NCBI GenBank assembly: GCA_039920285.1
Contig: JBDSDX010000001.1
Span: 600,001-632,000 of the forward strand
Direction: 5' to 3'
From: Candidatus Saccharimonadota bacterium
GTDB taxonomy: Bacteria > Patescibacteriota > Saccharimonadia > Saccharimonadales > Saccharimonadaceae
DNA: 32,000 nt
The notes under the pieces are model-generated. The model saw only the letters and a list, made by a program, of their open reading frames with translations. It did not search any database and was not told the origin of the DNA. The position numbers and the translations under genes were made by a program. Position 1 is the first letter of the stretch. Each line of letters opens with the position of its first letter. Of this stretch, positions 9,801 to 21,000 are shown piece by piece.

Positions 9801-12332
9801 ATGCTTTTTTACCATCAGTCGGTTGAGGAAACCTACAATGAATTTCGAAGTGGGGCTGACGGTCTGACTCGTCGAGAAGCTGCAATACGTCTCGAAGATC
9901 ATGGCCCAAATATCATTAAAATCAAAGGTGAACCTCTCTGGCGCATACTGATCGACCCTTTTGCTAATGTCTTTGTTGTGGTGTTGGTCATTGCTGCAGT
10001 TATCAGTTTCGTCCAGCATGCCGCATTTGATGGCTTTATCATTCTCTCAATCATCGTCATTAGCGCCTTAATCTATTATGTTCAGCGTTTTTCGACCGAG
10101 AGAGTCCTGAGGTCACTTCAGAAAAAATCCGCCCAACAGGTAATGGTGAAGAGAGGAGGCGAGACGCTCTATATCGACACTAGTCTTCTCGTACCAGGTG
10201 ATATTGTCACGCTCAGTGAAGGTGACAAAATACCGGCTGATATTCGCCTTACTATTGTCGACTCTCTGCGTGTCGACGAATCCATTCTGACAGGTGAGTC
10301 AGAACCCGTAGAAAAGCATATTGAGACACTTCCAGGCAAAAAAGAAGTGTACGAACAAACAAATATGCTCTTCCAGGGGTCTTTTATCGTATCGGGGCAT
10401 GCAACTGGTATCATTGTTTTCACCGGTAACCAGACTGAGTTTGGTCGTATTGCGGAACTTAGCAAGAAAACCAGTGAGTCATCCAGTAGCCCTGTCCAAA
10501 AGAAGATCGATAAATTAATCATATATGTTGTTGTCGTAGTCGGAATTCTGTCGTTCATTGCATTCATTTTAGCCCTTGTGCGAGGCATTGAACTAAGTGA
10601 GGCCCTCCGCTATGTGATGGCAATGACTGTCTCTGCGGTTCCTGAAGGGTTACCTGTCGCCATTTCTGTGATTCTGGTACTTGGTATGCGTCGCATGACG
10701 GCAAAAAAAGCACTGGTACGCTCAATGCAGGCAATTGAAACAATTGGGGTTATTACCACGATTGCCACTGACAAAACCGGAACACTGACCGAAAATAAAC
10801 TTTCCGTTCAACAAACTTGGCAACCAGAAGGCAATACACACGCCTTACTTGGGGCTGCGTATCGAACCATTACACACCAAGGCGAGCGAGGAAGTGACCC
10901 CCTCGACGCTGCTATCGATATTTTTCTTGATGGTAAACGATCGATTAATCGCAATGGTGATTCGCTGGCCATCCTGCCTTTTGATCACACATATGTCATG
11001 AGTGGCAATGTGTGGGAAGAAAATGGAGCGTACCAACTCGCAGTCAAAGGTGCTCCGGAACAAATCATTGCCCGTAGCCAGCTCACTAAAGCAAGTCAGT
11101 TGGCCGTCGAGGCACAACTCACACACCTCACCTCACAGGGCTATCGAGTCATCGCATTAGCTGTCGCAAAGCTTAAAACACCTATCGGTAGCTTTAAAAT
11201 GATGAAGCCAAATCAAACACTCGAATTCGTCGGTTTTTTGGCCATTGCTGATGCTTTGCGGGCGGGAAGTAAGAAAGCTATCAAAAGTGCCCAACAGGCT
11301 GGTGTCTCTGTCCGTATGATTACTGGTGACCACTTTGAGACCGCTTTTCATATCGGTAAACAGCTCGGGTTAGTGAAAAACCGTGATCAGGTGTTCGATA
11401 GTCGTTTAATCGATGAAATGACCGAACAAGAATTAACTGATCGTATAGAGACGGCTCGTGTTTTTTCTCGTGTCACCCCTGAAAATAAGTTTCGTATTCT
11501 CCAGATATTAAAGAAGAAAGATATTACCGCTATGACTGGTGACGGGGTAAATGACGTCCCAGCCCTCGCGAACGCTCATGTGGGTATCGCGATGGGCAGT
11601 GGATCACAGATTGCCAAGGACGCCGGAGGTATTATCCTTTTGAATGACAACTTCGACAGTATCGTACGCGCCATGAGAGAGGGTCGTATCATCTTTTCAA
11701 ATGTTCGTCGCATGTTGATCTACCTCTTGTCGTCGAATACAGCCGAAGCTCTTATTATGGTCATGGCGCTTGCCATTGGCTTACCTTTGCCTCTGTTACC
11801 GGTCCAAATTCTTTGGATCAACCTCGTCAGTGAAACGGCAGTCGTTATTCCTTTAGGGCTCGAGCCCGGCGAAAAACGTATCATGCGACGAAAACCTGTC
11901 TCGCCAACCGCACCTCTCCTCAGTAAGTACATGGTGTTTCGCATCGGACTCGTTGCACTTACTATGAGCGTCCTTGTCCTCGTGGCATATGCGTACTATC
12001 AGGGTAAATATGGTACTGAATACGGCCAGACTATTGTCTTCACCTTAATTATTGCCTTAGTCTGGGCGAATGCCTTTAATGCCCGTAGTACCTTCGAATC
12101 GGCCTTCTCACGGCTTCGGGTGTGGAGTGGGGCATTCTATATCGGTTTGAGCATTTCAATCCTCCTGCAGGCTCTGGCGGTCTTGGGCCCACTGAGAGGA
12201 GCGCTGCATATCTACCCGATCTCTGCGAACGATCTTATCTTCACGAGTGTCGTTGGGTTTAGTGTGGTCATTCTCGTCGTGGAAATCCATAAATTCTTCG
12301 GTCGTCGTTTCATTGCACATACCGTTAAGTAA
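9801..12332 (+). CDS. P-type cation-transporting ATPase (P2-type, Ca2+/Mg2+-ATPase-like)
   Basis: Cation_ATPase_N-like start (GLTRREAAIRLEDHGPN), TGESEPV, phosphorylation motif ATDKTGTLTEN, MITGDHFETA, hinge TGDGVNDVPALANAHVGIAMG, and about 10 TM helices. The start is ATG 9801, or GTG 9795 two codons earlier. Confidence 0.93.
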   Translation: MLFYHQSVEETYNEFRSGADGLTRREAAIRLEDHGPNIIKIKGEPLWRILIDPFANVFVVVLVIAAVISFVQHAAFDGFIILSIIVISALIYYVQRFSTERVLRSLQKKSAQQVMVKRGGETLYIDTSLLVPGDIVTLSEGDKIPADIRLTIVDSLRVDESILTGESEPVEKHIETLPGKKEVYEQTNMLFQGSFIVSGHATGIIVFTGNQTEFGRIAELSKKTSESSSSPVQKKIDKLIIYVVVVVGILSFIAFILALVRGIELSEALRYVMAMTVSAVPEGLPVAISVILVLGMRRMTAKKALVRSMQAIETIGVITTIATDKTGTLTENKLSVQQTWQPEGNTHALLGAAYRTITHQGERGSDPLDAAIDIFLDGKRSINRNGDSLAILPFDHTYVMSGNVWEENGAYQLAVKGAPEQIIARSQLTKASQLAVEAQLTHLTSQGYRVIALAVAKLKTPIGSFKMMKPNQTLEFVGFLAIADALRAGSKKAIKSAQQAGVSVRMITGDHFETAFHIGKQLGLVKNRDQVFDSRLIDEMTEQELTDRIETARVFSRVTPENKFRILQILKKKDITAMTGDGVNDVPALANAHVGIAMGSGSQIAKDAGGIILLNDNFDSIVRAMREGRIIFSNVRRMLIYLLSSNTAEALIMVMALAIGLPLPLLPVQILWINLVSETAVVIPLGLEPGEKRIMRRKPVSPTAPLLSKYMVFRIGLVALTMSVLVLVAYAYYQGKYGTEYGQTIVFTLIIALVWANAFNARSTFESAFSRLRVWSGAFYIGLSISILLQALAVLGPLRGALHIYPISANDLIFTSVVGFSVVILVVEIHKFFGRRFIAHTVK

Positions 12333-12340
12333 AAGAAATA

Positions 12341-12360
12341 CCCAGGCTCGCAGTCCTGGG
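12341..12360. terminator. Hairpin between convergent genes (likely a terminator, better suited to the minus-strand gene)
   Basis: CCCAGG (12341-12346) pairs with CCTGGG (12355-12360) across an 8-nt loop. On the minus strand it is followed by TATTTCTTTT; on the plus strand only by CATTT. Confidence 0.55.
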
Positions 12361-12386
12361 CATTTAAATGTTCACAGATATACTCC

Positions 12387-12638
12387 TTAAGACATAATGC
12401 TCAAAAGCGTCCAGTTACCTCCGTGGTTGTCGCTGCGAAGACGATAGAACGAGTGGCCATCTGAAAGGGTGATGATCTCAGCTAAGTTCTCTCCTGAACG
12501 GACCAGGCATCGGAGGCCAGCGTCGATAAACTCATAGATTGAGCCACGGAATTCCATGCGACGAGGGTAGGCAGACAAGTCCTTCTTGAACCCCATTCGT
12601 GTGACAGCGATTTCTTCATTGATAGTGATACGATTCAT
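12387..12638 (-). CDS. Hypothetical 83-aa protein
   Basis: Intact ORF with GGAG 9 nt upstream of the ATG (TTGGAGAAAAACTATG) and a downstream hairpin. I recognise no family. Confidence 0.6.
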   Translation of the reverse strand: MNRITINEEIAVTRMGFKKDLSAYPRRMEFRGSIYEFIDAGLRCLVRSGENLAEIITLSDGHSFYRLRSDNHGGNWTLLSIMS

Positions 12639-12668
12639 AGTTTTTCTCCAAAAGGTTATATTTAACGC

Positions 12669-12695
12669 AAAAAGGCTGACAAAAGAGTTATCAGC
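12669..12695 (-). terminator. Terminator-like hairpin inside the 5' leader of the 83-aa gene (possible attenuator)
   Basis: On the minus strand, GCTGA (12695-12691) pairs with TCAGC (12679-12675) across an 11-nt loop that has partial extra pairing. It is followed by C and TTTTT (12673-12669), about 30 nt before the ATG. Confidence 0.35.
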
Positions 12696-12965
12696 GGCGG
12701 ATTTTGGAGGAGTGATTTGGAGAGGGATGGAGAACCGCGTAGATCTCTGTCCTTTTTACCAAATATCACGATTAGAATTGTGCGATTAACAGGGGCGCTT
12801 AGTTTCTAGATTAACCAGTGTGCGTGCTATCGTTGGTGGCTTCATAAGCCTGAGAGTGGAAATCTCTACGAAAGAGAAGTACTCGCATGACTGTTCTTAG
12901 TATACTCCTCCTACTAGCATAGGCGTCAAGCGTTGATCTTTACGAAAAGATAGTGCTTAAGTATA

Positions 12966-12994
12966 TTTACATTTGGTCGTTTTTGTGCTATAAT
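12966..12994 (+). promoter_or_regulatory. Strong sigma-70-type promoter with extended -10 (TTTACA-17-TGcTATAAT) driving the high-GC surface-protein operon
   Basis: TTTACA at 12966-12971 and TATAAT at 12989-12994, with a 17-nt spacer and TG at 12986-12987. The roughly 105-nt leader contains two hairpins (13021-13038 and 13075-13092) and a GAGGAG SD (13096-13101). Confidence 0.65.
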
Positions 12995-13105
12995 GTATTT
13001 TATGCGTGTGAGCTACTATTTGTGGCGTCCACGCCACATTAACAATTAGTAAATTACGCAATCCGCCCCACTACGTATCCTCCATAGGATACAGAGAGGA
13101 GTCCC

Positions 13106-15232
13106 GTGAGGACTTCGCGCAAAAAAGTCGCCTTGAAGGTGACTGGATTAACCCTGGGAGTGTTACTCCTAGGTTCCATGGGGATTTCGGCTGCAAATGC
13201 CTTAACCTCCGATGACCCCGCCACGGACCCTGTGTCCGTCATGGAGGAGACGCTACCGGCGTCCGATCCTGCTCCTGCGACAGACCCGGCTCCTGAGTCA
13301 GGTCCTGTCGGAGAGACACCCAGCGAAGACCTGGTCTCGTCGCCAGTCGACGAGACCACCGACGGCACTGCGCCCGAGGAATCGAAAATGTCACAGTCTG
13401 TGGCAACAGTGGCGGCAAGCATCGGTGTAACCGGTGATCTGCTGCCATGGTCATCCGCAACTAACCAGGCCTCCTACTGGACGGATTACGGTCCGCACGA
13501 TGGAGCGCTCTGCTACAAGCATGACGCGAATGACTCGCCGAACGCACACGGATCGATCACAGACGGTGGAAAAACCGTCACGTTGAACCCCTACGGCGCA
13601 AATTGGCCCGGGGATCACTACGAACTGCTTGTCATCAAAGGCGGCAGTGACTACAACAACGTGATCATCCACCCAGTCGCCGGTGTCGCATACGCATCGC
13701 CGCCGAACTCGTCGGGCAACCAGTCCGACGTGTCACACTGGATCGTCTGCAAGGGCACCACGCCGCCGCCAATCGATGTTTGCAAAAACATCGACGGCAT
13801 TCAGACGCAAGTCCCTGCGGGCTACAACGAAAACTGCGAACCGCCGACCAACGACTGTGTCGCAGGAGCTGGTGAAACCTTCACCGAGAACAACCCGATG
13901 ATCGAGAACGACATGATCGGTAACGCCTCGTACTCGTACGAGAACGGCTATCTGAAAATCGTCACACTTGACGGGAATGCGAAGGTTAACCTCCGGAGTG
14001 GAAACCCGGGCTTCGCGTTGAAGAACGTCGGGACCCTGGACATCCTGGGCTCTAACGTCAGCGGTACAGTCAATGGCCTGGGCCTGAATCTCTACGTCGA
14101 CATGGATGGAGACCTCTCCACCACGAACGATCGAGGGACGATGGTCTTTGAAAAGGTGTACGGTCAGGACCTCTGGGTTCCGACTTCCGCATCGAATGCA
14201 GCTCTGTCTGCAGTCGCGCCTTCCCACACGGGAGGCAACGGATCAGCCAACCACGGCACCATCAACCAGTGGCTCACCAACATCCCGAACGCGTGGGTGA
14301 TGGACTGGGCGCTGAACTACGGTCGTATCGGTGCAACGGAGTGGAATGTGACGAAGGTCGTCATTAACTGCTCCAACTTCACTTACGACCACTACGTGGC
14401 TCCGCCGACACCTGTGTCGCCGAAGCCCACTGGTGATGTTGTCATCAGCTGCGTCAACACAACAGGTTCGGGTTCAAAGGCAGTCATCAACGCCTCAAAC
14501 CCTACACCGGAAGAAGGAACAACGACACCCGCTGTGAATTACAGCGTGACCGTCGATGGAGTCGTGGATCACACCTACGATTTCACCCTGAATCCTGGTG
14601 AAACGTTGTCGCCGCCCATTGAGATCTCCTTCGCGGAGGACTCGGGTAGCCACACCGTTGAACTCTGGTGGATTACCGACGCTATGCGTGAACCGGTCCA
14701 GCTGGACTCGGCGACCGCTGGCAGTGACTGTGCTCCGAACGAGGTAACCGGTACTCCGGGATCCTCGGCAACGCAGACCTGTGGTTCGGTCACGTACACG
14801 TTCTCATTCCCGGCTGTAGAGTTGGGTGAGAACGATTTCATCAAGCCAGTCACGTTCGTGTATACGGACGAGAACGGTGACGTACAAGAAGTCGTGATGA
14901 ACGCTGGTGACGGTGACGTCACCAAGACGGTTACGTACCCCGAGGACAGCCACAGTGGCAGCCTTGTGGTAGAGTTCGGTGAGAAGGGTAAAACCCTCAC
15001 CAAGCTGACCATCGACACTGATTGCCAGACACCGCCACCCCCGCCTCACGGTGGGGTTAACGGTGAAGTCCTGAACGGCCCGCTCATGTGGGTCGCTGGT
15101 GGCGTAGGAGCTGTGGGGCTGGTCGCACTGACCCTCCTCCTGTTCCCCGGCATCATCGGACGCCGCCGCAACTCGAGCCTTGTGCTTGAGGGACCGGCCG
15201 TTACAACCACCGTGGTGAGTGACACCGAGTAA
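13106..15232 (+). CDS. Secreted, membrane/cell-wall-anchored surface protein (708 aa), high-GC
   Basis: GTG start after the GAGGAG SD. Signal peptide MRTSRKKVALKVTGLTLGVLLLGSMGISAANA. Pro/Asp/Thr-rich linker (DPATDP ... DPAPATDPAPESGP). A single CKNIDGIQTQVPAGY-type motif. A poly-Pro stalk (TPPPPPHGG) precedes a C-terminal hydrophobic helix plus RRRN. All antisense ORFs here are high-GC shadow ORFs. Confidence 0.85.
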   Translation: MRTSRKKVALKVTGLTLGVLLLGSMGISAANALTSDDPATDPVSVMEETLPASDPAPATDPAPESGPVGETPSEDLVSSPVDETTDGTAPEESKMSQSVATVAASIGVTGDLLPWSSATNQASYWTDYGPHDGALCYKHDANDSPNAHGSITDGGKTVTLNPYGANWPGDHYELLVIKGGSDYNNVIIHPVAGVAYASPPNSSGNQSDVSHWIVCKGTTPPPIDVCKNIDGIQTQVPAGYNENCEPPTNDCVAGAGETFTENNPMIENDMIGNASYSYENGYLKIVTLDGNAKVNLRSGNPGFALKNVGTLDILGSNVSGTVNGLGLNLYVDMDGDLSTTNDRGTMVFEKVYGQDLWVPTSASNAALSAVAPSHTGGNGSANHGTINQWLTNIPNAWVMDWALNYGRIGATEWNVTKVVINCSNFTYDHYVAPPTPVSPKPTGDVVISCVNTTGSGSKAVINASNPTPEEGTTTPAVNYSVTVDGVVDHTYDFTLNPGETLSPPIEISFAEDSGSHTVELWWITDAMREPVQLDSATAGSDCAPNEVTGTPGSSATQTCGSVTYTFSFPAVELGENDFIKPVTFVYTDENGDVQEVVMNAGDGDVTKTVTYPEDSHSGSLVVEFGEKGKTLTKLTIDTDCQTPPPPPHGGVNGEVLNGPLMWVAGGVGAVGLVALTLLLFPGIIGRRRNSSLVLEGPAVTTTVVSDTE

Positions 15233-15959
15233 GGGTCGCCGCAACGCCATCGTAAGGGTCGTGGCAGGGACTGTCGTAGTAGCGAGTATTTTGACGCTGC
15301 TCTACATGTTTCTGCCACGGCCACCGGTTCCTCGGCAAGTCGTCGTGGAGCCACCGGTGGCCGCGTTGGCACCCGAGGTAGAACCCCCGCTCGACAAAGT
15401 TGTTCCAGCAGGAAAACCTCTAAGGGTACAAATCCCGTCGGTTAGTTTCGACACGGATGCGATCATCCCGAAAGATGAAACAGAGAAGATCAAGGAATGG
15501 TCAACGGAAGACGACAATGCAGCCCATGGGCTGGTCCAACCCGGAGACTACTGGGCATGGTCGCTCGTATACGATACGTCAGTCGCTGGCGGCGGTCTCT
15601 TCGGAACCGATGTCGCGACAACACCTCGCATCGACGGACACACCAGTCCATGGAATAGCAATCCCTTGGGGGCATTCAATGTCCTTCAGTCGGTGGAAGT
15701 TGGCGACGTTGTTGCCATCACTACCGATCAGGGTCTCCTCTGCTACAATGTCAGCATGATTGACCATGTGCTCAAAACCGAACTCGACACGACGTACGAT
15801 AAATACGACAGTGCCAAGATCGAAGAGGACACAGTTCTTCTGCAGTCGTGCGACCGCCCTACATGGTGGTTGGATTGGCTGGCAACAGATAAGAACATCG
15901 TCGTAAAGCTCAAGTTAAACCAGAGCTCGACAAATGCTGGCACCTGCTGGGTTGCGTAA
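15219..15959 (+). CDS. Sortase-like transpeptidase (class E/F-like), membrane-anchored
   Basis: The GTG start overlaps the upstream gene by 14 nt. N-terminal TM (VVAGTVVVASILTLLYMFL) and a Pro-rich linker. LRVQIPSVSFDTDAI resembles the sortase L-x-IP-x-IG-V strand. His in RIDGHTSP; VLQSVEVGDVVAITTDQGLLCYNV; Cys in TVLLQSCDRP (TLxTC-like). I could not place the catalytic Arg confidently. Confidence 0.6.
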   Translation: MTPSKGRRNAIVRVVAGTVVVASILTLLYMFLPRPPVPRQVVVEPPVAALAPEVEPPLDKVVPAGKPLRVQIPSVSFDTDAIIPKDETEKIKEWSTEDDNAAHGLVQPGDYWAWSLVYDTSVAGGGLFGTDVATTPRIDGHTSPWNSNPLGAFNVLQSVEVGDVVAITTDQGLLCYNVSMIDHVLKTELDTTYDKYDSAKIEEDTVLLQSCDRPTWWLDWLATDKNIVVKLKLNQSSTNAGTCWVA

Positions 15960-16052
15960 TATGCTGAAGAAGTGTGGGAGATTCGCTCTCCCTGCTTCGC
16001 ACCGCGCGTAAAAACGTACGGAGTCCGTCACCCTTAGGGGAGATGGATACCT

Positions 16053-16094
16053 GGGCGACCCTGCCTGGCTTTTGCCAGGTGAGGTCGCCCTTTT
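16053..16094 (+). terminator. Compound GC-rich hairpin terminator ending the high-GC island
   Basis: GGGCGACC (16053-16060) pairs with GGTCGCCC (16083-16090). An inner stem CCTGGC (16064-16069) pairs with GCCAGG (16074-16079). TTTT follows at 16091-16094. Confidence 0.75.
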
Positions 16095-16137
16095 AAATTG
16101 GCAAAAAATATAGGATATTTCAGATTTAACCCGGCAT

Positions 16138-16146
16138 TGATACAAT
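16138..16146 (+). promoter_or_regulatory. Extended -10 element TGaTACAAT for the carotenoid operon
   Basis: TGATACAAT at 16138-16146. The ATG of the first gene at 16157 is 10 nt downstream with no clear SD. Confidence 0.45.
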
Positions 16147-16156
16147 AGATGGATAC

Positions 16157-17236
16157 ATGTCAGACCAAGCAACTCATACCCATACAGAGGTTTTAACGTC
16201 ACAACAGGCTAAACAGCTCGTGGACGAATATATGTTAGACTTACTCGCTGACCGAATCGCGCAGGCAAGTGCAGTCCATGGAAACTACAAACGTCTCTGG
16301 GAAGCTATTCAGAATTTATATAGTGCTGGCGGCAAACGTTTACGGCCTTATATGACACTCTTGACGTACCAAGCCTATGCCGATAAACCAGTTGAAAATG
16401 TTCTTCCGGCAGCTGTTGCCCAAGAATTGCTCCATCAAGCCATGCTGATTCACGACGATATTATCGACCGTGATACTGTTCGCTATAATGTAAAGAATAT
16501 CTCAGGCCAGTATCTCGATATATATACAGACCTGGCAGAATCCCGACATTTTGCCGACAGTAGCGCTATCCTCGCAGGTGACTTACTAATATCTGAAGCA
16601 CATATTCAAGTTGCAAAAAGTAACACAGAGCCAAAAATTTTAACGCAAGTACAACAGATCTTAAATCAGGAAGTCTTCCACGTTGTAGGTGGAGAACTCC
16701 TTGATACTGAAGCGAGTTTTTCTCAAGAGAGTATCATTGATCCACTGACAATTGCCGAACAAAAAACAGCAAGTTATTCTTTCGTCGGTCCACTCACAAT
16801 GGGCGCAACACTGGCAGGCGCAGACGAAGTGCAAATAGGACTATTGAAACACTTCGGCACTTCGATTGGCATTGCCTACCAACTACGTGATGACATCATA
16901 GGCATTTTTGGTAATCAAGTAGTGACTGGTAAAAGTAACGAGGGTGATATTCGTGAAGGCAAGCGCACACTTTTGATCGATGAGTTCTATAAACGAGCAA
17001 ACGATGATCAAAAAGCTCAATTTGAAACTACCTTTGGCTCACAGACTGCGACCGATACCGACATACAGACAGTTCGCGAGCTTCTCATTGAAACGGGAGC
17101 TGTTGCCGCTATCGAAACTTGTATCGATTCATATAAACAGCAAACGATCGATCATCTCGCCGAACTATCGATCCCCGAACCATACCGCGAACAATTTAAC
17201 ATTCTCATAGCGCAGAGTTTGGATCGAGAAAGCTAA
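16157..17236 (+). CDS. crtE: Polyprenyl diphosphate synthase (geranylgeranyl-PP synthase-like, CrtE/IdsA)
   Basis: First Asp-rich motif LIHDDIIDRD, second Asp-rich motif QLRDDIIG, GGKRLRP, and a KT-SYSF region. It is the first gene of a crt-type operon. Confidence 0.88.
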   Translation: MSDQATHTHTEVLTSQQAKQLVDEYMLDLLADRIAQASAVHGNYKRLWEAIQNLYSAGGKRLRPYMTLLTYQAYADKPVENVLPAAVAQELLHQAMLIHDDIIDRDTVRYNVKNISGQYLDIYTDLAESRHFADSSAILAGDLLISEAHIQVAKSNTEPKILTQVQQILNQEVFHVVGGELLDTEASFSQESIIDPLTIAEQKTASYSFVGPLTMGATLAGADEVQIGLLKHFGTSIGIAYQLRDDIIGIFGNQVVTGKSNEGDIREGKRTLLIDEFYKRANDDQKAQFETTFGSQTATDTDIQTVRELLIETGAVAAIETCIDSYKQQTIDHLAELSIPEPYREQFNILIAQSLDRES

Positions 17237-18060
17237 TGGAACTCTACGAAAAAGTCAGCTATGCGATTAGTCGTGAATTAACAAATGCTTATTCAACATC
17301 ATTTAGCTTGAGCATGCGATTATTCTCTCCGTCTATTCGAACGCACATCTACGCAATTTATGGCATGGTCCGCATTGCTGATGAAATCGTTGATAGCTAT
17401 AGTGGAGCCGACCAGCGGGAACTTCTCGATACTCTCGAAAAAGAAGTAAAAGCTGCGGTAAAGCGAGGCTATAGTACCAACCCAATCATCCACGCCTATG
17501 CGTTAACCGCACATCGTTTTAGTATTCCTAATAGTTTCGTCACCGCTTTCTTCAAAAGCATGCGCATGGATCTACAGGTTCAGACGTATGATCAAACGAA
17601 GTATGAGACCTATATCTACGGCTCAGCGGAAGTCGTGGGGCTTATGTGCTTGAAAGTGTTCACAGATGACGAAGCATTGTATCTGCAGCTTGAAGACGGT
17701 GCCCGACATCTCGGTGCAGCCTATCAAAAAGTAAATTTCATTCGTGATATTAAAGCTGACCATGAAACCCTGGGTCGTTGGTATTTTCCGTTCAGTTCGT
17801 TTATGACATTTGATGATAAAGTGCGTGGTCGTATCATAAAAGATATCGAAAAAGACTTCGTACTCGCCAAAAGAGCAGCTGCTCAGCTACCGGAGACATC
17901 TCGTCGTGCGGTTGAGCTCAGCATCACGTATTATTCAACATTACTTGAAAAGATTAAGAAGAGCCCAGCATCGCGACTCAAAACACATCGTATCCGTATT
18001 AATAACGCTCACAAAATGAGTCTTTTTATAAAAGTAGGGACATCTCGTCGTGAAGCGTAA
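17236..18060 (+). CDS. crtB: Phytoene synthase
   Basis: Squalene/phytoene synthase pattern: YSTSFSLSMRLF, YAIYGMVRIADEIVD, YIYGSAEVVGLMC, GAAYQKVNFIRDIKAD. The ATG overlaps the crtE stop (TAATG). Confidence 0.9.
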   Translation: MELYEKVSYAISRELTNAYSTSFSLSMRLFSPSIRTHIYAIYGMVRIADEIVDSYSGADQRELLDTLEKEVKAAVKRGYSTNPIIHAYALTAHRFSIPNSFVTAFFKSMRMDLQVQTYDQTKYETYIYGSAEVVGLMCLKVFTDDEALYLQLEDGARHLGAAYQKVNFIRDIKADHETLGRWYFPFSSFMTFDDKVRGRIIKDIEKDFVLAKRAAAQLPETSRRAVELSITYYSTLLEKIKKSPASRLKTHRIRINNAHKMSLFIKVGTSRREA

Positions 18061-19570
18061 GGTTATTATCATCGGTGGCGGTATTGGTGGCTTAGCGACC
18101 GCTAATCTATTACAAAAAGCAGGGTATGACGTGTCTATGTATGAAAAGAATGACCAACTTGGTGGTCGAGCTGGGTTAAAGAAAGCGATGGGTTTTTCAT
18201 TTGATACTGGCCCCTCATGGTACCTTATGCCTGGAGTTTTTAAACAATATTTTGATTTGTTTGGACTGTCAGTCAATAAAGAATTAGGGCTGAAAAAATT
18301 GAAACCAGCTTATAAGGTATTCTATGAATCGCATCAGCCTATCACTATAACTGGTAATCAAAAAACCGACAGCGCGACGTTTGAACGTATCGAGCCGGGT
18401 GCCGGTAAAGCTCTCGCGCGCTACGTTGAAGAGGGGAATCATATCTATCGATTTGCGCTGAAGCACTTTCTCTACACGAACTTCAACCGCCCACTTGATC
18501 TCGTCAAATTGGAAATATTGAGACAGGGTCCGCCAATGCTAAAACTACTTGCTACCTCTGTTCATAGCAGAGTAAAATCCTTTGTTTCGAACCAAGCACT
18601 GCAACAAATACTTGAGTACCCAATGGTGTTCTTAGGTTCATCACCGTTCAAAGCACCAGCAATGTATAGTCTTATGAGCGCACTCGATTTTAAGGAGGGT
18701 GTGTATTATCCAAAAGAGGGAATTTATTCAATTATCCAGTTGCTCGAATGGACTGGCCGCGAGCTTGGTGTGTCGTACAAGCTCAACACTGGTGTCAAAA
18801 GAATTCTTCATAAAAATGGTCACGCCACGGGAATTTTACTTGAAACTGGTGAAAAGATCGACGCAGATATTGTGATCTCCAATGCGGATCTGCACTTCAC
18901 AGAAACAAAACTTCTCAGCGCTTCTGCACGTTCATATCCTGCAGCTTATTGGGGGAAACGAGAGCCAGGTATCTCAGCACTTCTTATCTACCTCGGCATC
19001 AAAGGCTCTTTACCCCAACTCGAACACCACAACCTATTCTTCGTCGACAAATGGAAAGAGAATTTCCGCGCGATCTATAAAACAAAAGAGATTCCGAAGT
19101 CAGCATCACTTTACGTGTGTAAACCTTCAGCAACCGACACGAACGTTGCGCCAAAAGGACATGAAAATGTCTTTGTCCTCGTTCCGCTTCCTGCCGGAGT
19201 CAAAATTTCTAAAATTCAGACCGCCCAACTTACGGAACGTTTTATAGAACAACTATCGACGTCTATCGACCAGCCAGATCTCAAAGATCGTATCGTTTTC
19301 CAGGAAAGCTTTGGCCCTGGTGACTTTGAAACGAAATTCGGTGCCTGGCAGGGAACAGCCCTGGGTGTTTCCCACTTATTAAAACAAAGTGCCTTTTGGC
19401 GTACTCCAAATAAAAGTAAAAAACTTGATAATCTTTTTTACGTTGGTGGAAACACTGTTCCCGGTGTGGGATTACCGATGTGTTTGATTAGCGCAGAACT
19501 TGTCTATAAGCGAATTATGGGTATCAAACGTGGTGGGGCGCTCACAGCAATAGAAAAGGTCACTGACTAG
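18050..19570 (+). CDS. crtI: Phytoene desaturase (CrtI family)
   Basis: N-terminal FAD fold VIIIGGGIGGLATANLLQKAGYDVSMYEKNDQLGGRA, then FDTGPSWYLMP. C-terminal LFYVGGNTVPGVGLPMCLISAELV is typical of CrtI. The start overlaps crtB by 11 nt. Confidence 0.9.
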   Translation: MKRKVIIIGGGIGGLATANLLQKAGYDVSMYEKNDQLGGRAGLKKAMGFSFDTGPSWYLMPGVFKQYFDLFGLSVNKELGLKKLKPAYKVFYESHQPITITGNQKTDSATFERIEPGAGKALARYVEEGNHIYRFALKHFLYTNFNRPLDLVKLEILRQGPPMLKLLATSVHSRVKSFVSNQALQQILEYPMVFLGSSPFKAPAMYSLMSALDFKEGVYYPKEGIYSIIQLLEWTGRELGVSYKLNTGVKRILHKNGHATGILLETGEKIDADIVISNADLHFTETKLLSASARSYPAAYWGKREPGISALLIYLGIKGSLPQLEHHNLFFVDKWKENFRAIYKTKEIPKSASLYVCKPSATDTNVAPKGHENVFVLVPLPAGVKISKIQTAQLTERFIEQLSTSIDQPDLKDRIVFQESFGPGDFETKFGAWQGTALGVSHLLKQSAFWRTPNKSKKLDNLFYVGGNTVPGVGLPMCLISAELVYKRIMGIKRGGALTAIEKVTD

Positions 19571-19878
19571 TGCTGTGGTATTTGATTGGACTCTTGTTCG
19601 CAATTATTTGTTTAATACTCATTGATTGGCGTTACAAACTTGCATTCTTTTTTGATAGCAAACGAACTGCCTTGACACTCTTTGTGGCAATCGGATTATT
19701 CACCGTGTGGGACGTGCTGGGTATTCGTCTTCATATATTTTTTCACGGTGGGTCAGACTTTACGTTACCTATTCGATTGGCGCCAGAATTTCCACTTGAG
19801 GAACTTTTCTTCCTATTCCTTCTGACCTATGTCACGTTAATTGTGTATCGGTTCTTACAAAAAGGTAAAAAAGCATGA
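19570..19878 (+). CDS. Lycopene-cyclase-domain small subunit (CrtYc/CrtYe-like)
   Basis: 102-aa, 3-TM protein. The GTG start shares 1 nt with the crtI stop. Its position and size match heterodimeric carotenoid cyclase subunits, and PLEELFFLFLLTYVTL resembles the P-x-EE motif of the lycopene-cyclase domain. Confidence 0.72.
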   Translation: MLWYLIGLLFAIICLILIDWRYKLAFFFDSKRTALTLFVAIGLFTVWDVLGIRLHIFFHGGSDFTLPIRLAPEFPLEELFFLFLLTYVTLIVYRFLQKGKKA

Positions 19879-20165
19879 CCTACCTTATATTGAATATATT
19901 ATTTCTTGCGACATTGATATTTTTCATTCCAAATACATTTAAAAAACCAACCAAACAGTGGTGGATTCTTCTTGCGGCTGTTCTCTTATTAACCGCTGTC
20001 TTTGACCCCATCATTATTGCGCTTCATATTGTGGCCTATGATCCAACGAACATTCTCGGTATCTATTGGTTTGGCGCACCAATTGAAGATTTCTTTTACG
20101 CACTCTATGCAGTACTATTAATTCCATTAGCATGGCAAAAAATTGGAGCCTCACGTGGTAAATAA
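19875..20165 (+). CDS. Lycopene-cyclase-domain small subunit (CrtYd/CrtYf-like)
   Basis: 96-aa, 3-TM protein with an ATGA overlap with the previous gene. GAPIEDFFYALYAVLLI matches the P-x-E(E/D) cyclase-domain motif. It forms a pair with the preceding subunit. Confidence 0.72.
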   Translation: MTYLILNILFLATLIFFIPNTFKKPTKQWWILLAAVLLLTAVFDPIIIALHIVAYDPTNILGIYWFGAPIEDFFYALYAVLLIPLAWQKIGASRGK

Positions 20166-21000
20166 ATTACTCAAATTGTTCAAAGTCTCTCGTCCTATTT
20201 CATGGATCAATACCGCATATCCATTCTTAGCCGCATATTTAGTTGTCGGAGGTCAGATTGATCTCGTCTTCATATTAGGGAGTATTTTCTTTTTCATCCC
20301 TTATAACATTTTGATGTACGGCATTAATGATGTATTTGATTATGAATCTGATGTCCAAAATCCTCGAAAAGGAACGATTGAAGGAGCGGTTGAATCGAAG
20401 CAATTTCACCCTTACATCATTAAAGCTTCATTAATTTCGACGATTCCATTTGTCATTGCTCTGGCATTTTTAATACCTTGGTATGCAACACTGACACTTC
20501 TCGTCGTGCTATTCTTTGTCGTTGCATACAGTGTCAAAGGGCTGCGTTTTAAAGAAATCCCCGTACTCGATTCAATCACCAGCAGTATGCACTTCATCGG
20601 TCCACTTCTGGTAGCTCTCGCTATTTTTGACTGGCCATCACAAGCTTGGCCAATAGTCATTGCATTCTTTCTATGGGGTATGGCGAGCCATGCATTCGGT
20701 GCTGTTCAAGACATTATTCCTGATCGAAAAGGGAAGTTGAAGTCTATCGCAACCGTACTGGGAGCGCGCATCACTGTTGGCTTCAGCTTCTTACTCTACA
20801 TCGTTAGTTCGATGATCATAAGTATTAATGGCAATGAGATATTTATCGGTATCGTTGGGTTACTCTACGCGCTCAATGTCTTGCCGTACCTACACGTCAG
20901 TGACAAGACATCAGCAACAACCAATAAAGGCTGGCGACGATTCATTTGGATTAATTATATCGTTGGTGCGGTTATCACACTCACGTTACTGTTTGTCTAA
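20143..21000 (+). CDS. UbiA-family prenyltransferase (lycopene-elongase CrtEb/LyeJ-like)
   Basis: UbiA motifs NDVFDYESD (NDxxDxxxD), YSVKGLRFKEIPVLDS, and a second Asp motif VQDIIPDRKGKLKSIA. About 8 TM helices. It is the last gene of the crt operon and overlaps the previous gene. The start is TTG 20143 or GTG 20155. Confidence 0.8.
   Translation: MEPHVVNKLLKLFKVSRPISWINTAYPFLAAYLVVGGQIDLVFILGSIFFFIPYNILMYGINDVFDYESDVQNPRKGTIEGAVESKQFHPYIIKASLISTIPFVIALAFLIPWYATLTLLVVLFFVVAYSVKGLRFKEIPVLDSITSSMHFIGPLLVALAIFDWPSQAWPIVIAFFLWGMASHAFGAVQDIIPDRKGKLKSIATVLGARITVGFSFLLYIVSSMIISINGNEIFIGIVGLLYALNVLPYLHVSDKTSATTNKGWRRFIWINYIVGAVITLTLLFV

Follow-up and report, generated by a model that had tools for sequence, protein, structure and literature searches.

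The question raised by this locus is where a sharply bounded, GC-rich pair of genes in a low-GC genome has come from and what the pair may do. The window analyzed here is a stretch of 32,000 nucleotides (nt) from a member of the Saccharimonadales (assembly GCA_039920285.1, contig JBDSDX010000001.1, positions 600,001 to 632,000 of the forward strand), and all coordinates given below are positions within it. A sequence-only reading of this DNA had proposed that positions 13040 to 16095 hold an island, acquired horizontally from a high-GC donor such as Actinobacteria, encoding a secreted surface protein and a sortase-like enzyme. It had also raised the possibility of host attachment if the organism were an epibiont, and the organism is a Saccharimonadales metagenome-assembled genome, in keeping with that premise. 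The answer that we hold to be reasonably probable is that the pair constitutes an old, clade-wide, self-contained two-gene operon (the cassette), in which a substrate protein would be displayed on the cell surface by a sortase of a rare kind and parts of which would be derived from actinobacteria or their phages.

The G+C content of the segment from 13040 to 16095 is 57.0%, compared with 44.4% for the remainder of the window. Elsewhere in the window, 3-kb stretches reach at most 47.8%, and the segment lies 7.6 standard deviations above the mean. A 500-nt profile gave values of 0.54 to 0.60 within the segment and of 0.37 to 0.51 beyond it. Most of the excess falls at synonymous sites: the G+C content of third codon positions (GC3) was 0.688 for the gene of 708 amino acids (aa) and 0.607 for the sortase-like gene, compared with 0.378 to 0.474 in 21 backbone genes, and a value of 0.571 was obtained for an 83-aa gene located upstream. 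The five 60-nt counts made by hand in the sequence-only reading (39/60, 36/60, 18/60, 19/60, and 26/60) were all exact, and the abrupt change in composition that it described is evident in the sliding profile and the GC3 shift. The list of open reading frames (ORFs) likewise contained the two overlapping genes and the long antisense shadow ORFs (five within the segment, 108 to 164 aa) that had been reported. Scans for signs of mobility agreed with the absence noted previously: there was no tRNA in the window, the only direct repeats flanking the segment were chance matches of 14 to 22 nt, and no integrase or transposase domain was present among 26 scanned window ORFs. The GC-rich segment and its two-gene content were thus confirmed.

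In at least 10 further Saccharimonadales assemblies, the slot that contains these two genes was likewise found to be filled (loci recovered from other assemblies and contigs are denoted by L numbers and individual proteins by P numbers). The gene order of the window, consisting of GreA, a P-type ATPase, the 83-aa gene on the reverse strand, the surface protein, the sortase, and a crtE-B-I...UbiA cluster, is repeated in L064. The surface-protein homologue P0009 lies between the same neighbors on a 705-kb scaffold, and the parts present on shorter contigs (L059-L061, L065-L067, L077, and L078) and in L001/L006 agree with the order of L064. A surface gene accompanied by a sortase-like gene was present in L059, L060, L061/62, L063, L064/69, L065-67, and L005; in L001/L006 and L078 the surface gene is followed directly by the polyprenyl synthase gene without any sortase gene, and the contig of L077 ends just past the surface gene. 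The flanking proteins in these slot loci are 50 to 72% identical to those of the window and to one another, the sortases are 34 to 44% identical to the window enzyme, and all of them have a GC-rich surface gene. Flank identities of this order indicate that the lineages are deeply diverged and that the cassette is older than their split; hence, a check for presence in sister genomes did not bear out a recent island private to this strain. No empty slot was encountered among the syntenic loci recovered, which were found through the cassette genes and without a dedicated search for empty slots.

Pairs of this type were also observed outside the slot, in low-GC Patescibacteria-like genomes, where the pair at L080:5313-6588 adjoins rpsF-ssb-rpsR-efp and that at L079:4548-6702 adjoins carAB; both are sharp GC-rich islands (0.61 to 0.66 versus approximately 0.46). 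Within the slot region of L077, an additional 140-aa ORF with a GC3 of 0.879 (L077:5691-6113) is located between the ATPase and the 83-aa gene and is thus a second GC-rich gene there.

The cassette has a complete set of expression signals, all on the forward strand. The promoter that had been described as TTTACA-17-TGcTATAAT was located in AT-rich DNA at 12966-12994; it comprises a −35 element (TTTACA), a 17-nt spacer, and an extended −10 element (TG-n-TATAAT) and matched the consensus at 11 of 12 positions, plus the TG, in a consensus scan. An alignment of control regions (alignment A7) showed that a TTTAC..N..TG.TA.A.T block is kept in L001, L064, L077, and L079. A ribosome-binding site read from the sequence, AGAGAGGAG (13093-13101), lies 4 nt 5′ of the GTG start of the 708-aa surface-protein gene (13106-15232), and the 246-aa sortase-fold gene (15219-15959) overlaps the latter by 14 nt, an overlap that makes translational coupling of the two genes probable. 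A GC-rich, structured 3′ untranslated region (UTR) with an intrinsic terminator extends from 15960 to 16094. Its last hairpin (16053-16094) has a GC stem, GGGCGACC...GGTCGCCC, followed by TTTT, and the region as a whole (15957-16110) folds into four hairpins with a minimum free energy of −75.6 kcal/mol (z = −7.3 relative to shuffles), in accordance with the compound terminator claimed from the sequence. Multi-hairpin 3′ regions of a comparable kind are present in other cassette loci, and an Rfam search of 12300-16400 detected no known RNA. In L060, L061, L063, L064, L066, and L067, the first 30 nt past the sortase stop codon contain a conserved block, (T/G)AAGCC(A/G)AAA..C(C)GC, followed by several hairpins and a terminator; this block is missing from the 3′ UTR of the window.

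The first gene has been deposited in a truncated form. From residue 25 onwards the window protein is identical to NCBI P0001, "ABIP50_03310 [Candidatus Saccharimonadales bacterium]," which is encoded on a 795-kb contig and whose start at Met25 (684 aa) is 24 codons late and cuts off the signal peptide (window 13106-13177), and use of the GTG at 13106, with AGAGAGGAG 4 nt before it, yields a complete one. Residues 1-32 (13106-13201) were judged by eye on the translation to have the standard tripartite layout, with MRTSRKK, a hydrophobic core, and ANA before L, and are accordingly predicted to be a Sec signal peptide. An acidic, Pro-rich spacer separates this peptide from a conserved, beta-rich N-domain of 115 aa (aa 106-220, 13421-13765), which is followed by a Cys-rich linker and middle domain (aa 223-430, 13772-14395) collinear with protein P0002 and by a C-terminal region (aa 448-691, 14447-15178) that is common to other Saccharimonadales cassette proteins and ends in a poly-Pro stalk. 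The sequence GGVNG (aa 649-653, 15050-15064), which is the window version of the sorting motif proposed below, precedes a C-terminal transmembrane (TM) helix (aa 662-685) and RRRN (aa 686-689; helix and RRRN together, 15089-15172). A hydrophobic segment with an Arg tail is an architecture common to homologues of the protein; the 19-aa tail after RRRN, which overlaps the start of the sortase gene, is unusually long. The 708-aa protein had no match in Pfam or NCBIfam.

Comparisons of the individual regions indicated that they differ in ancestry. The C-terminal region is 37% identical over 255 aa to the substrate of L063 (E = 6e-31) and resembles only that cassette protein, and the full-length cassette proteins of L064 and L066 are devoid of the N-domain. 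As judged by these sequence relationships, the surface protein is a mosaic, its parts being of actinobacterial type, of actinophage type, and of the Saccharimonadales cassette, three ancestries in all, and its gene is the variable member of the cassette, with N-terminal domains that differ between lineages. The slot gene of one genome, Saccharibacteria UBA4215 (L006:9230-11038), shows 90% identity to P0009 in its first 462-491 aa; beyond these it continues out of frame in a tail rich in Arg, Gly, and Gln that has no sorting signal, probably owing to a frameshift that would stem either from an assembly error or from decay to a pseudogene.

The product of the second gene can be described with confidence as a sortase-fold enzyme of a rare clade in which the His and Cys are kept, on the evidence of a predicted structure. 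An AlphaFold2 (AF2) model, for which the relatives served as the alignment, had a predicted local distance difference test (pLDDT) score of 92.3 and gave 103 matches to the PDB at E ≤ 0.001. The top 50 of these were all sortases (target-normalized TM-scores, 0.47 to 0.68), in agreement with the eight-stranded beta-barrel of this superfamily, and were headed by pilin-specific class C sortases and SrtA of C. diphtheriae. A profile of the family matched 47 PDB sequences (E ≤ 1), almost exclusively sortases (best E, 4.1e-7), with alignments running from the His to the Cys, and a single-sequence phmmer search of the PDB found nothing. By hhalign, H141 corresponded to H120 and C211 to C184 of SrtA, and hidden Markov model (HMM) alignments to PDB sortases paired GH with GH and TC with TC. 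The label "sortase-like" given from the letters alone was correct, being marginal by sequence and solid by structure.

The residues concerned are His141 (15639-15641), Cys211 (15849-15851), and Arg213 (15855-15857, forward strand as for the others), the last occupying the position Cys+2. Searches with HMMER of 1.84 billion representatives detected 36 relatives at E ≤ 1e-3, 17 of them at E ≤ 1e-10, and a word-index search of 5.8 billion proteins detected two. H141 and R213 show no variation within a core clade of 18 members, and C211 is nearly invariant there; C211 is present in at least 90% of the relatives, and distant relatives of high G+C content also exhibit C-[YD]-R and N-[IV]-V-V motifs. 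An additional Cys pair (LCYNV...TN[AT]G[ST]C) is conserved in the core clade. The window enzyme itself has a membrane anchor at its N terminus (aa 11-32). The Pfam Sortase family was matched by 33 of the 36 relatives at E ≤ 0.01 (best E, 6e-16). Class F was the best NCBIfam class for the wider family (22/36 at E ≤ 0.01; best E, 4.5e-18, values that were not compared with the class cut-off), and the core clade matched no class convincingly, the weak matches being to class C (9/18), class F (5/18), and class E (3/18). The close relatives (30 to 46% identity) are all encoded on low-GC, syntenic contigs of Saccharimonadales type, and no member of the sortase clade was found within 10 kb of actinobacterial N-domain genes.

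The C termini of the proteins encoded next to the sortase were compared between loci. In five loci, the gene upstream of the sortase was observed to end in a Pro-rich stalk, GG[AIV][NE][TA]G, a spacer of 9 to 27 aa, a TM helix, and an Arg-rich tail, and the same pattern, mostly with GGANTG, was seen in L063-L067, which were retrieved independently. A regular-expression search for GG[AIV][NE][TA]G in the six-frame ORFs of 15 Saccharimonadales loci (approximately 125,000 aa) gave 10 matches, all of which were in the gene upstream of the sortase and 51 to 61 aa from the C terminus. At the C termini of nearly all other homologues of the window protein, LAxTG is followed by a hydrophobic segment and RRR. 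Those Saccharimonadales slots that have no dedicated sortase carry LAxTG or LPNTG, as exemplified by P0009 (LASTG), P0003 (LAVTG), and P0004 (LAMTG), such that the presence of the sortase and of a GG-type motif were perfectly correlated. Within the final 60 aa of the window ORFs, no LPXTG, LAXTG, NPQTN, or LPXTA was present, and the NCBIfam LPXTG-anchor models did not match the window protein. More-distant relatives of the enzyme are also paired with upstream proteins having a TM helix and an Arg tail, with GGGADTE in L079 and GGQND in L080. The simplest reading of these alignments would be that each enzyme has coevolved with the signal of its neighbor; transpeptidase activity on the sorting signal is proposed for the product of the second gene.

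An "LNG" motif shared by the window (VLNGP) and L005 (LQLNGG) was considered as the signal and was dropped when additional loci showed GG[AIV][NE][TA]G to be the constant element; LNG, LYG, or LFG is a semiconserved follower of the GG motif. On metagenome contigs of 60 to 68% GC (L070-L076), relatives of the sortase were located directly 3′ of genes for secreted proteins that end in KN[TV]LHD[SA]KTDGF, a TM helix, and RR, which is apparently another non-LPXTG signal, for class-F-like sortases.

The N-domain points to an external contribution. This domain has two invariant Cys residues and the motifs HG..TDGGKTVTL, WPGDHWELLV.KGG, and VSHWIVCKG and is 63 to 72% identical to "hypothetical proteins" of Microbacterium and to metagenome proteins. 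Among species-representative genomes it was present in 53 loci, mostly of Microbacterium, Demequina, and Acidimicrobiia, with two of the 53 in Saccharibacteria; the actinobacterial members are LAxTG proteins. In Actinomycetota the G+C content of the N-domain gene equals that of its flanks, and in four Saccharibacterial loci it is 13 to 17 points higher. A neighbor-joining tree of 112 columns placed the window and the same-slot Saccharimonadales copies inside a clade with Microbacterium that had a bootstrap value of 100, backbone support outside this clade being weak. The copy in L046 fell elsewhere in the tree, which implies at least two entries of the domain. An AF2 model of the N-domain (pLDDT, 89.6) had no match in the PDB or BFVD at E < 0.2.

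Phage relationships were detected for the adjoining region. Residues 120-433 of the window protein are collinear only with P0002 (42% identity over 321 aa), which is encoded on L004, a 60-kb contig of 63% GC with genes matching phage families at E values down to 1e-97. Residues 186-341 of P0002 are 42 to 45% identical to Microbacterium phage proteins, and residues 326-406 of the window protein are 40.7% identical to a "membrane protein" of phage Nicole72; relatives of the middle domain were found in the Microbacterium phages Gina, Teamocil, Megan, and Nicole72. Both domains also occur on IMG/VR viral contigs, the middle domain on L082. An actinobacterial or phage origin of parts of the surface protein is well supported by these comparisons. 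At least the N-domain would have entered the lineage from Actinomycetota or their phages, with the direction and timing being our inference, and the middle domain probably entered by a similar transfer. Microbacterium-like organisms, which would also be plausible hosts, are the most likely source.

Secreted proteins with the N-domain and/or the middle domain are encoded by phages in their own right (L004, the Microbacterium phages, and IMG/VR contigs L082-L085), and those of L004 (P0002) and L083-L085 end in the sortase signals LALTG, LPETG, LPNTG, and LAETG, which we take to mean that they may be anchored by the sortase of the host. One viral contig with the N-domain is only 41% GC, indicating that this family reaches beyond the Actinomycetota.

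These results are consistent with a mechanism in which the surface protein, once exported, stays in the membrane through its C-terminal helix and the charged tail. The dedicated sortase would then recognize GG[AIV][NE][TA]G and cleave at or near it, with formation of a thioacyl intermediate on Cys211 and with assistance from His141 and, presumably, Arg213. Transfer of the protein to the cell wall by the sortase would leave its N-terminal domains displayed on the Pro-rich stalk.

Several observations weigh against the proposal of an old operon with a dedicated wall-anchoring enzyme and parts of external origin. The window enzyme scored 25.4 bits against Pfam Sortase (PF04203, peptidase C60), below the gathering score of 26.6, and far below the cut-off of every NCBIfam sortase class; its only class match was to class C (15.9 bits versus a cut-off of 160; E, ∼0.01), and the class F model (NF033748) did not match it at E < 0.01. 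All sortases are said to use a His-Cys-Arg triad (PMC8225981), and this family has no conserved Arg or Lys at the beta8 position, approximately 13 residues past the Cys. Asn226 is located where the canonical Arg is expected, and Asn is found there in at least 90% of the relatives. Alignments to solved sortases end just past the Cys, such that the beta8 Arg was unalignable; Arg213 is a putative stand-in for the triad Arg. The window motif, GGVNG, lacks the Thr/Ala position that matches the scissile Thr of LPXTG, and this feature, together with the 19-aa tail past RRRN, means that the window copy could be degenerate and its protein merely membrane anchored. The correlation between motif and sortase involves about nine lineages, some of them closely related, whose taxonomy was inferred from synteny and GC rather than from marker genes. 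Finally, the substrates of L064, L066, L079, and L080, which have no actinobacterial-type domain, are equally GC-rich, indicating that GC-richness alone is no sign of actinobacterial origin, and unameliorated GC3 values of 0.69 to 0.905 are unexpected in an old cassette and point either to renewal on repeated occasions or to a local force of unknown nature.

An alternative explanation is that the locus is native and vertically inherited and that its G+C content was made in place, by GC-biased gene conversion at a recombination hot spot or by selection on the mRNA, with the shared domains being old or having been transferred in the reverse direction. Every lineage is GC-rich at this locus irrespective of the domains of its substrate, and the GC3 of the sortase gene is uniform and intermediate (0.59 to 0.64) in 11 loci, both of which speak for this explanation. 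Surface-gene GC3 partly tracks the backbone, at 0.69 in the 44% GC genome and 0.88 to 0.905 in genomes of approximately 50% GC, and the relationships of the N-domain look vertical. The codon usage is in keeping with a high-GC source. Relative synonymous codon usage of the window surface gene was correlated with that of the Microbacterium homologues (r = 0.85) and not with that of its own backbone (r = 0.09), and values of 0.97 and 0.93 relative to these homologues were obtained for L077 and L078, the correlations of the surface genes with their own backbones ranging from −0.14 to 0.38; the corresponding values for the sortase genes were 0.57 to 0.67 relative to Microbacterium, with 0.04 for the window sortase relative to the backbone. 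An origin in place is opposed by the distribution of the N-domain, which is overwhelmingly actinobacterial and which in Saccharibacteria occupies at least two unrelated positions and clades, and by the phage-borne occurrence of the N-domain and middle domain elsewhere. Codon adaptation of a highly expressed gene was examined as a cause and rejected: rpsF, rpsR, and efp of L080 have GC3 values of 0.38 to 0.48 compared with 0.75 for the adjoining substrate gene, and these low values for ribosomal-protein genes and efp exclude translational selection. We also rejected a spill-over of G+C into the sortase gene from the neighboring substrate gene, since the 5′-to-3′ gradient that it predicts in the sortase gene was absent (GC3 by thirds in 11 loci, 0.59/0.59/0.64). 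There is, moreover, no documented mechanism in these organisms for so strong a local bias. We consider an origin in place to be unlikely; the candidates left for the GC-richness are recurrent renewal with DNA supplied by hosts or phages, GC-biased gene conversion at a locus prone to recombination, and selection on the transcript.

A second alternative concerns function and holds that the enzyme is not a wall-anchoring one, and instead either polymerizes a pilus-like structure in the style of class C or belongs to a decaying pair with a membrane-anchored protein. Class C enzymes were prominent among both the top structural matches and the weak NCBIfam matches of the core clade, and a dedicated sortase beside a single substrate is the established pattern for classes C and B; the lack of a Thr in the window motif and the length of the tail could be signs of decay. 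The Foldseek E values, however, were similar for classes A, C, and E, and neither a pilin motif, a CnaB-type domain, nor a second pilin gene was detected. Decay is hard to reconcile with the intact His141, Cys211, and Arg213 of the window enzyme, with two uninterrupted ORFs, and with intact expression signals. Polymerization or decay is, on balance, improbable.

The proposal of the sequence-only reading, which treated the segment as an adhesion module imported from a high-GC donor, survives in part. The foreign character of the synonymous sites, the family to which the N-domain belongs, and the codon usage all accord with transfer from such a source; a recent or strain-specific event, a single donor, and an actinobacterial import of the sortase do not accord with the data. 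A recent, one-off acquisition of surface protein and sortase together from a high-GC actinobacterium would account for the abrupt step in G+C and GC3, for the actinobacterial-like codon usage, and for N-domain homologues in Microbacterium. It is contradicted by the occupied slot in at least 10 other assemblies with backbone proteins of only 50 to 72% identity and by the N-domain itself, for which divergence among slot genomes parallels that of the backbone, the window being the outlier in both. The best actinobacterial N-domains (67 to 72% identity) are no closer to that of the window than are the Saccharibacterial copies (75 to 77%), and no homologue of more than 85 to 90% identity was found in a donor clade, the best collinear match being that of 42% on the phage contig. 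A search for homologues of both proteins, together with a tree of the N-domain, was divided in its outcome, with the N-domain grouping with Microbacterium and the close relatives of the sortase all being on contigs of low-GC Saccharimonadales type, none of them having been found within 10 kb of the actinobacterial N-domain genes. The composition of the surface protein from three ancestries and the absence of mobility genes, tRNA, or flanking repeats are further points against a single event, and a recent island, already largely refuted by the synteny, is to be regarded as very improbable. An assembly or binning chimera joining a high-GC fragment into a low-GC contig is highly unlikely; nothing speaks for it other than the sharp step in composition and the origin of the genome from a metagenome. 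A separate Logan assembly (L081, run SRR26386597) is 100% identical over window 14719-16580 and thus across the 16095 boundary, one of the two at which a break had been envisaged, and a GC-rich gene between low-GC flanks recurs in ENA, JGI, NCBI, and Logan assemblies. The AT-rich flank immediately 5′ of the ORF contains both the promoter and the ribosome-binding site, and the upstream control region is kept across loci.

The region upstream of the cassette contains conserved features of its own. The 83-aa orphan gene (12387-12638, reverse strand) is divergent to the cassette and was present in every locus for which upstream DNA was available, including L079, where the downstream neighbors are different. 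Its product is 73 to 92% identical in L001, L006, L064, L066, and L077, compared with 50 to 72% for the other proteins, and had no match in Pfam, NCBIfam, or the PDB. The noncoding DNA between this gene and the cassette promoter is conserved above the level of the neighboring proteins and includes a structured 5′ leader of approximately 260 nt (12639-12896, reverse strand; alignment A7) with a putative promoter at approximately 12898-12928. The leader ends, 37 nt upstream of the ATG, in a terminator-like hairpin (12695-12675) with a U-run, and it contains a CU-rich block capable of pairing with the ribosome-binding site. A consensus fold of five sequences had 18 compensatory pairs among 65, compared with 7.4 ± 2.0 in shuffled alignments and two to eight in slid controls. 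The leader, which had no Rfam match, is a candidate attenuator or riboswitch-like element that would share a divergent control region with the cassette promoter.

Downstream of the cassette, window positions 16157-21000 contain a carotenoid cluster encoding a polyprenyl synthase, a phytoene synthase, a desaturase, one or more small lycopene-cyclase-like ORFs, and a UbiA prenyltransferase, in an order that we take to be the layout of actinobacterial C50-carotenoid clusters. This cluster has a backbone-like G+C content and is kept in all the syntenic Saccharimonadales loci, an unexpected metabolism for a reduced epibiont. It forms an operon that has its own conserved −10 element (TGnTATAGT) in all loci.

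To our knowledge, the means by which Saccharibacteria and other epibionts of the Candidate Phyla Radiation (CPR) recognize and hold their hosts are largely unknown, and work has centered on type IV pili. The locus described here offers a concrete candidate for attachment, in the form of a stalked, putatively wall-anchored protein with domains of Microbacterium and phage type and an enzyme of its own. The homologies of these domains nominate the Microbacteriaceae as candidate hosts of an uncultured Saccharimonadales lineage of soil or environmental origin. A sortase clade whose motif seems to be new is of interest for enzymology and for sortase-based protein ligation tools, and a gene that keeps a GC3 of 0.7 to 0.9 in deeply diverged genomes of 44 to 50% GC provides a natural test of recurrent transfer versus GC-biased gene conversion. 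No published description of the cassette, the slot, the motif, or the persistent GC anomaly was found, which is weak evidence given an incomplete coverage of the literature. A more far-reaching possibility, advanced here tentatively and as a doubtful one, is that the enzyme defines a new sortase class with its catalytic Arg at Cys+2 and a GG signal instead of LPXTG/LAXTG and that the fixed slot contains a single hypervariable cassette, repeatedly rebuilt from host (Microbacterium-like) and actinophage DNA and thereby kept at a G+C content like that of the host, which serves an obligate epibiont as an attachment locus and is coregulated with the 83-aa gene and its leader.

Dedicated pairs with variant signals are known among the class B sortases (SrtB and IsdC, NPQTN), the class D sortases (LPNTA), and the class C pilin sortases. 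The cassette resembles these pairs in having one sortase gene beside a private substrate with a variant motif; it differs from them in clade, in motif, in the longer spacer of window-type cassettes between motif and helix (9 to 27 aa), in the absence of an iron-uptake or pilin context, and in a canonical Arg that is apparently located at Cys+2. The likeness to class F sortases (NF033748; SrtF of P. acnes and SrtF1-4 of Actinoplanes) extends to the fold, the N-terminal membrane anchor, and the positions of the His and Cys. SrtF of P. acnes recognizes LPXTG (PMC8225981) and the physiological roles of this class are still unknown (PMC13251363), whereas the partners of the window clade carry the GG-type motif at 51 to 61 aa from the C terminus, and the core clade is distinguished by its extra Cys pair and by its low-GC contigs of Saccharimonadales type. 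LAxTG with a hydrophobic segment and RRR behind it constitutes the class E signal, utilized, for example, by Streptomyces SrtE with chaplins (PMC8225981); of the features of the N-domain proteins that end in this signal, the window protein has the N-domain and the tripartite C terminus but not LAxTG, and the neighboring enzyme does not belong to class E. CPR genomes commonly encode sortases (PMC6744442). The Saccharibacteria in cultivation live as epibionts of Actinobacteria (PMC11623550), by analogy with which host attachment or mimicry by the surface protein is plausible, and the display of host-like domains on the surface of an epibiont would fit such a mode of life.

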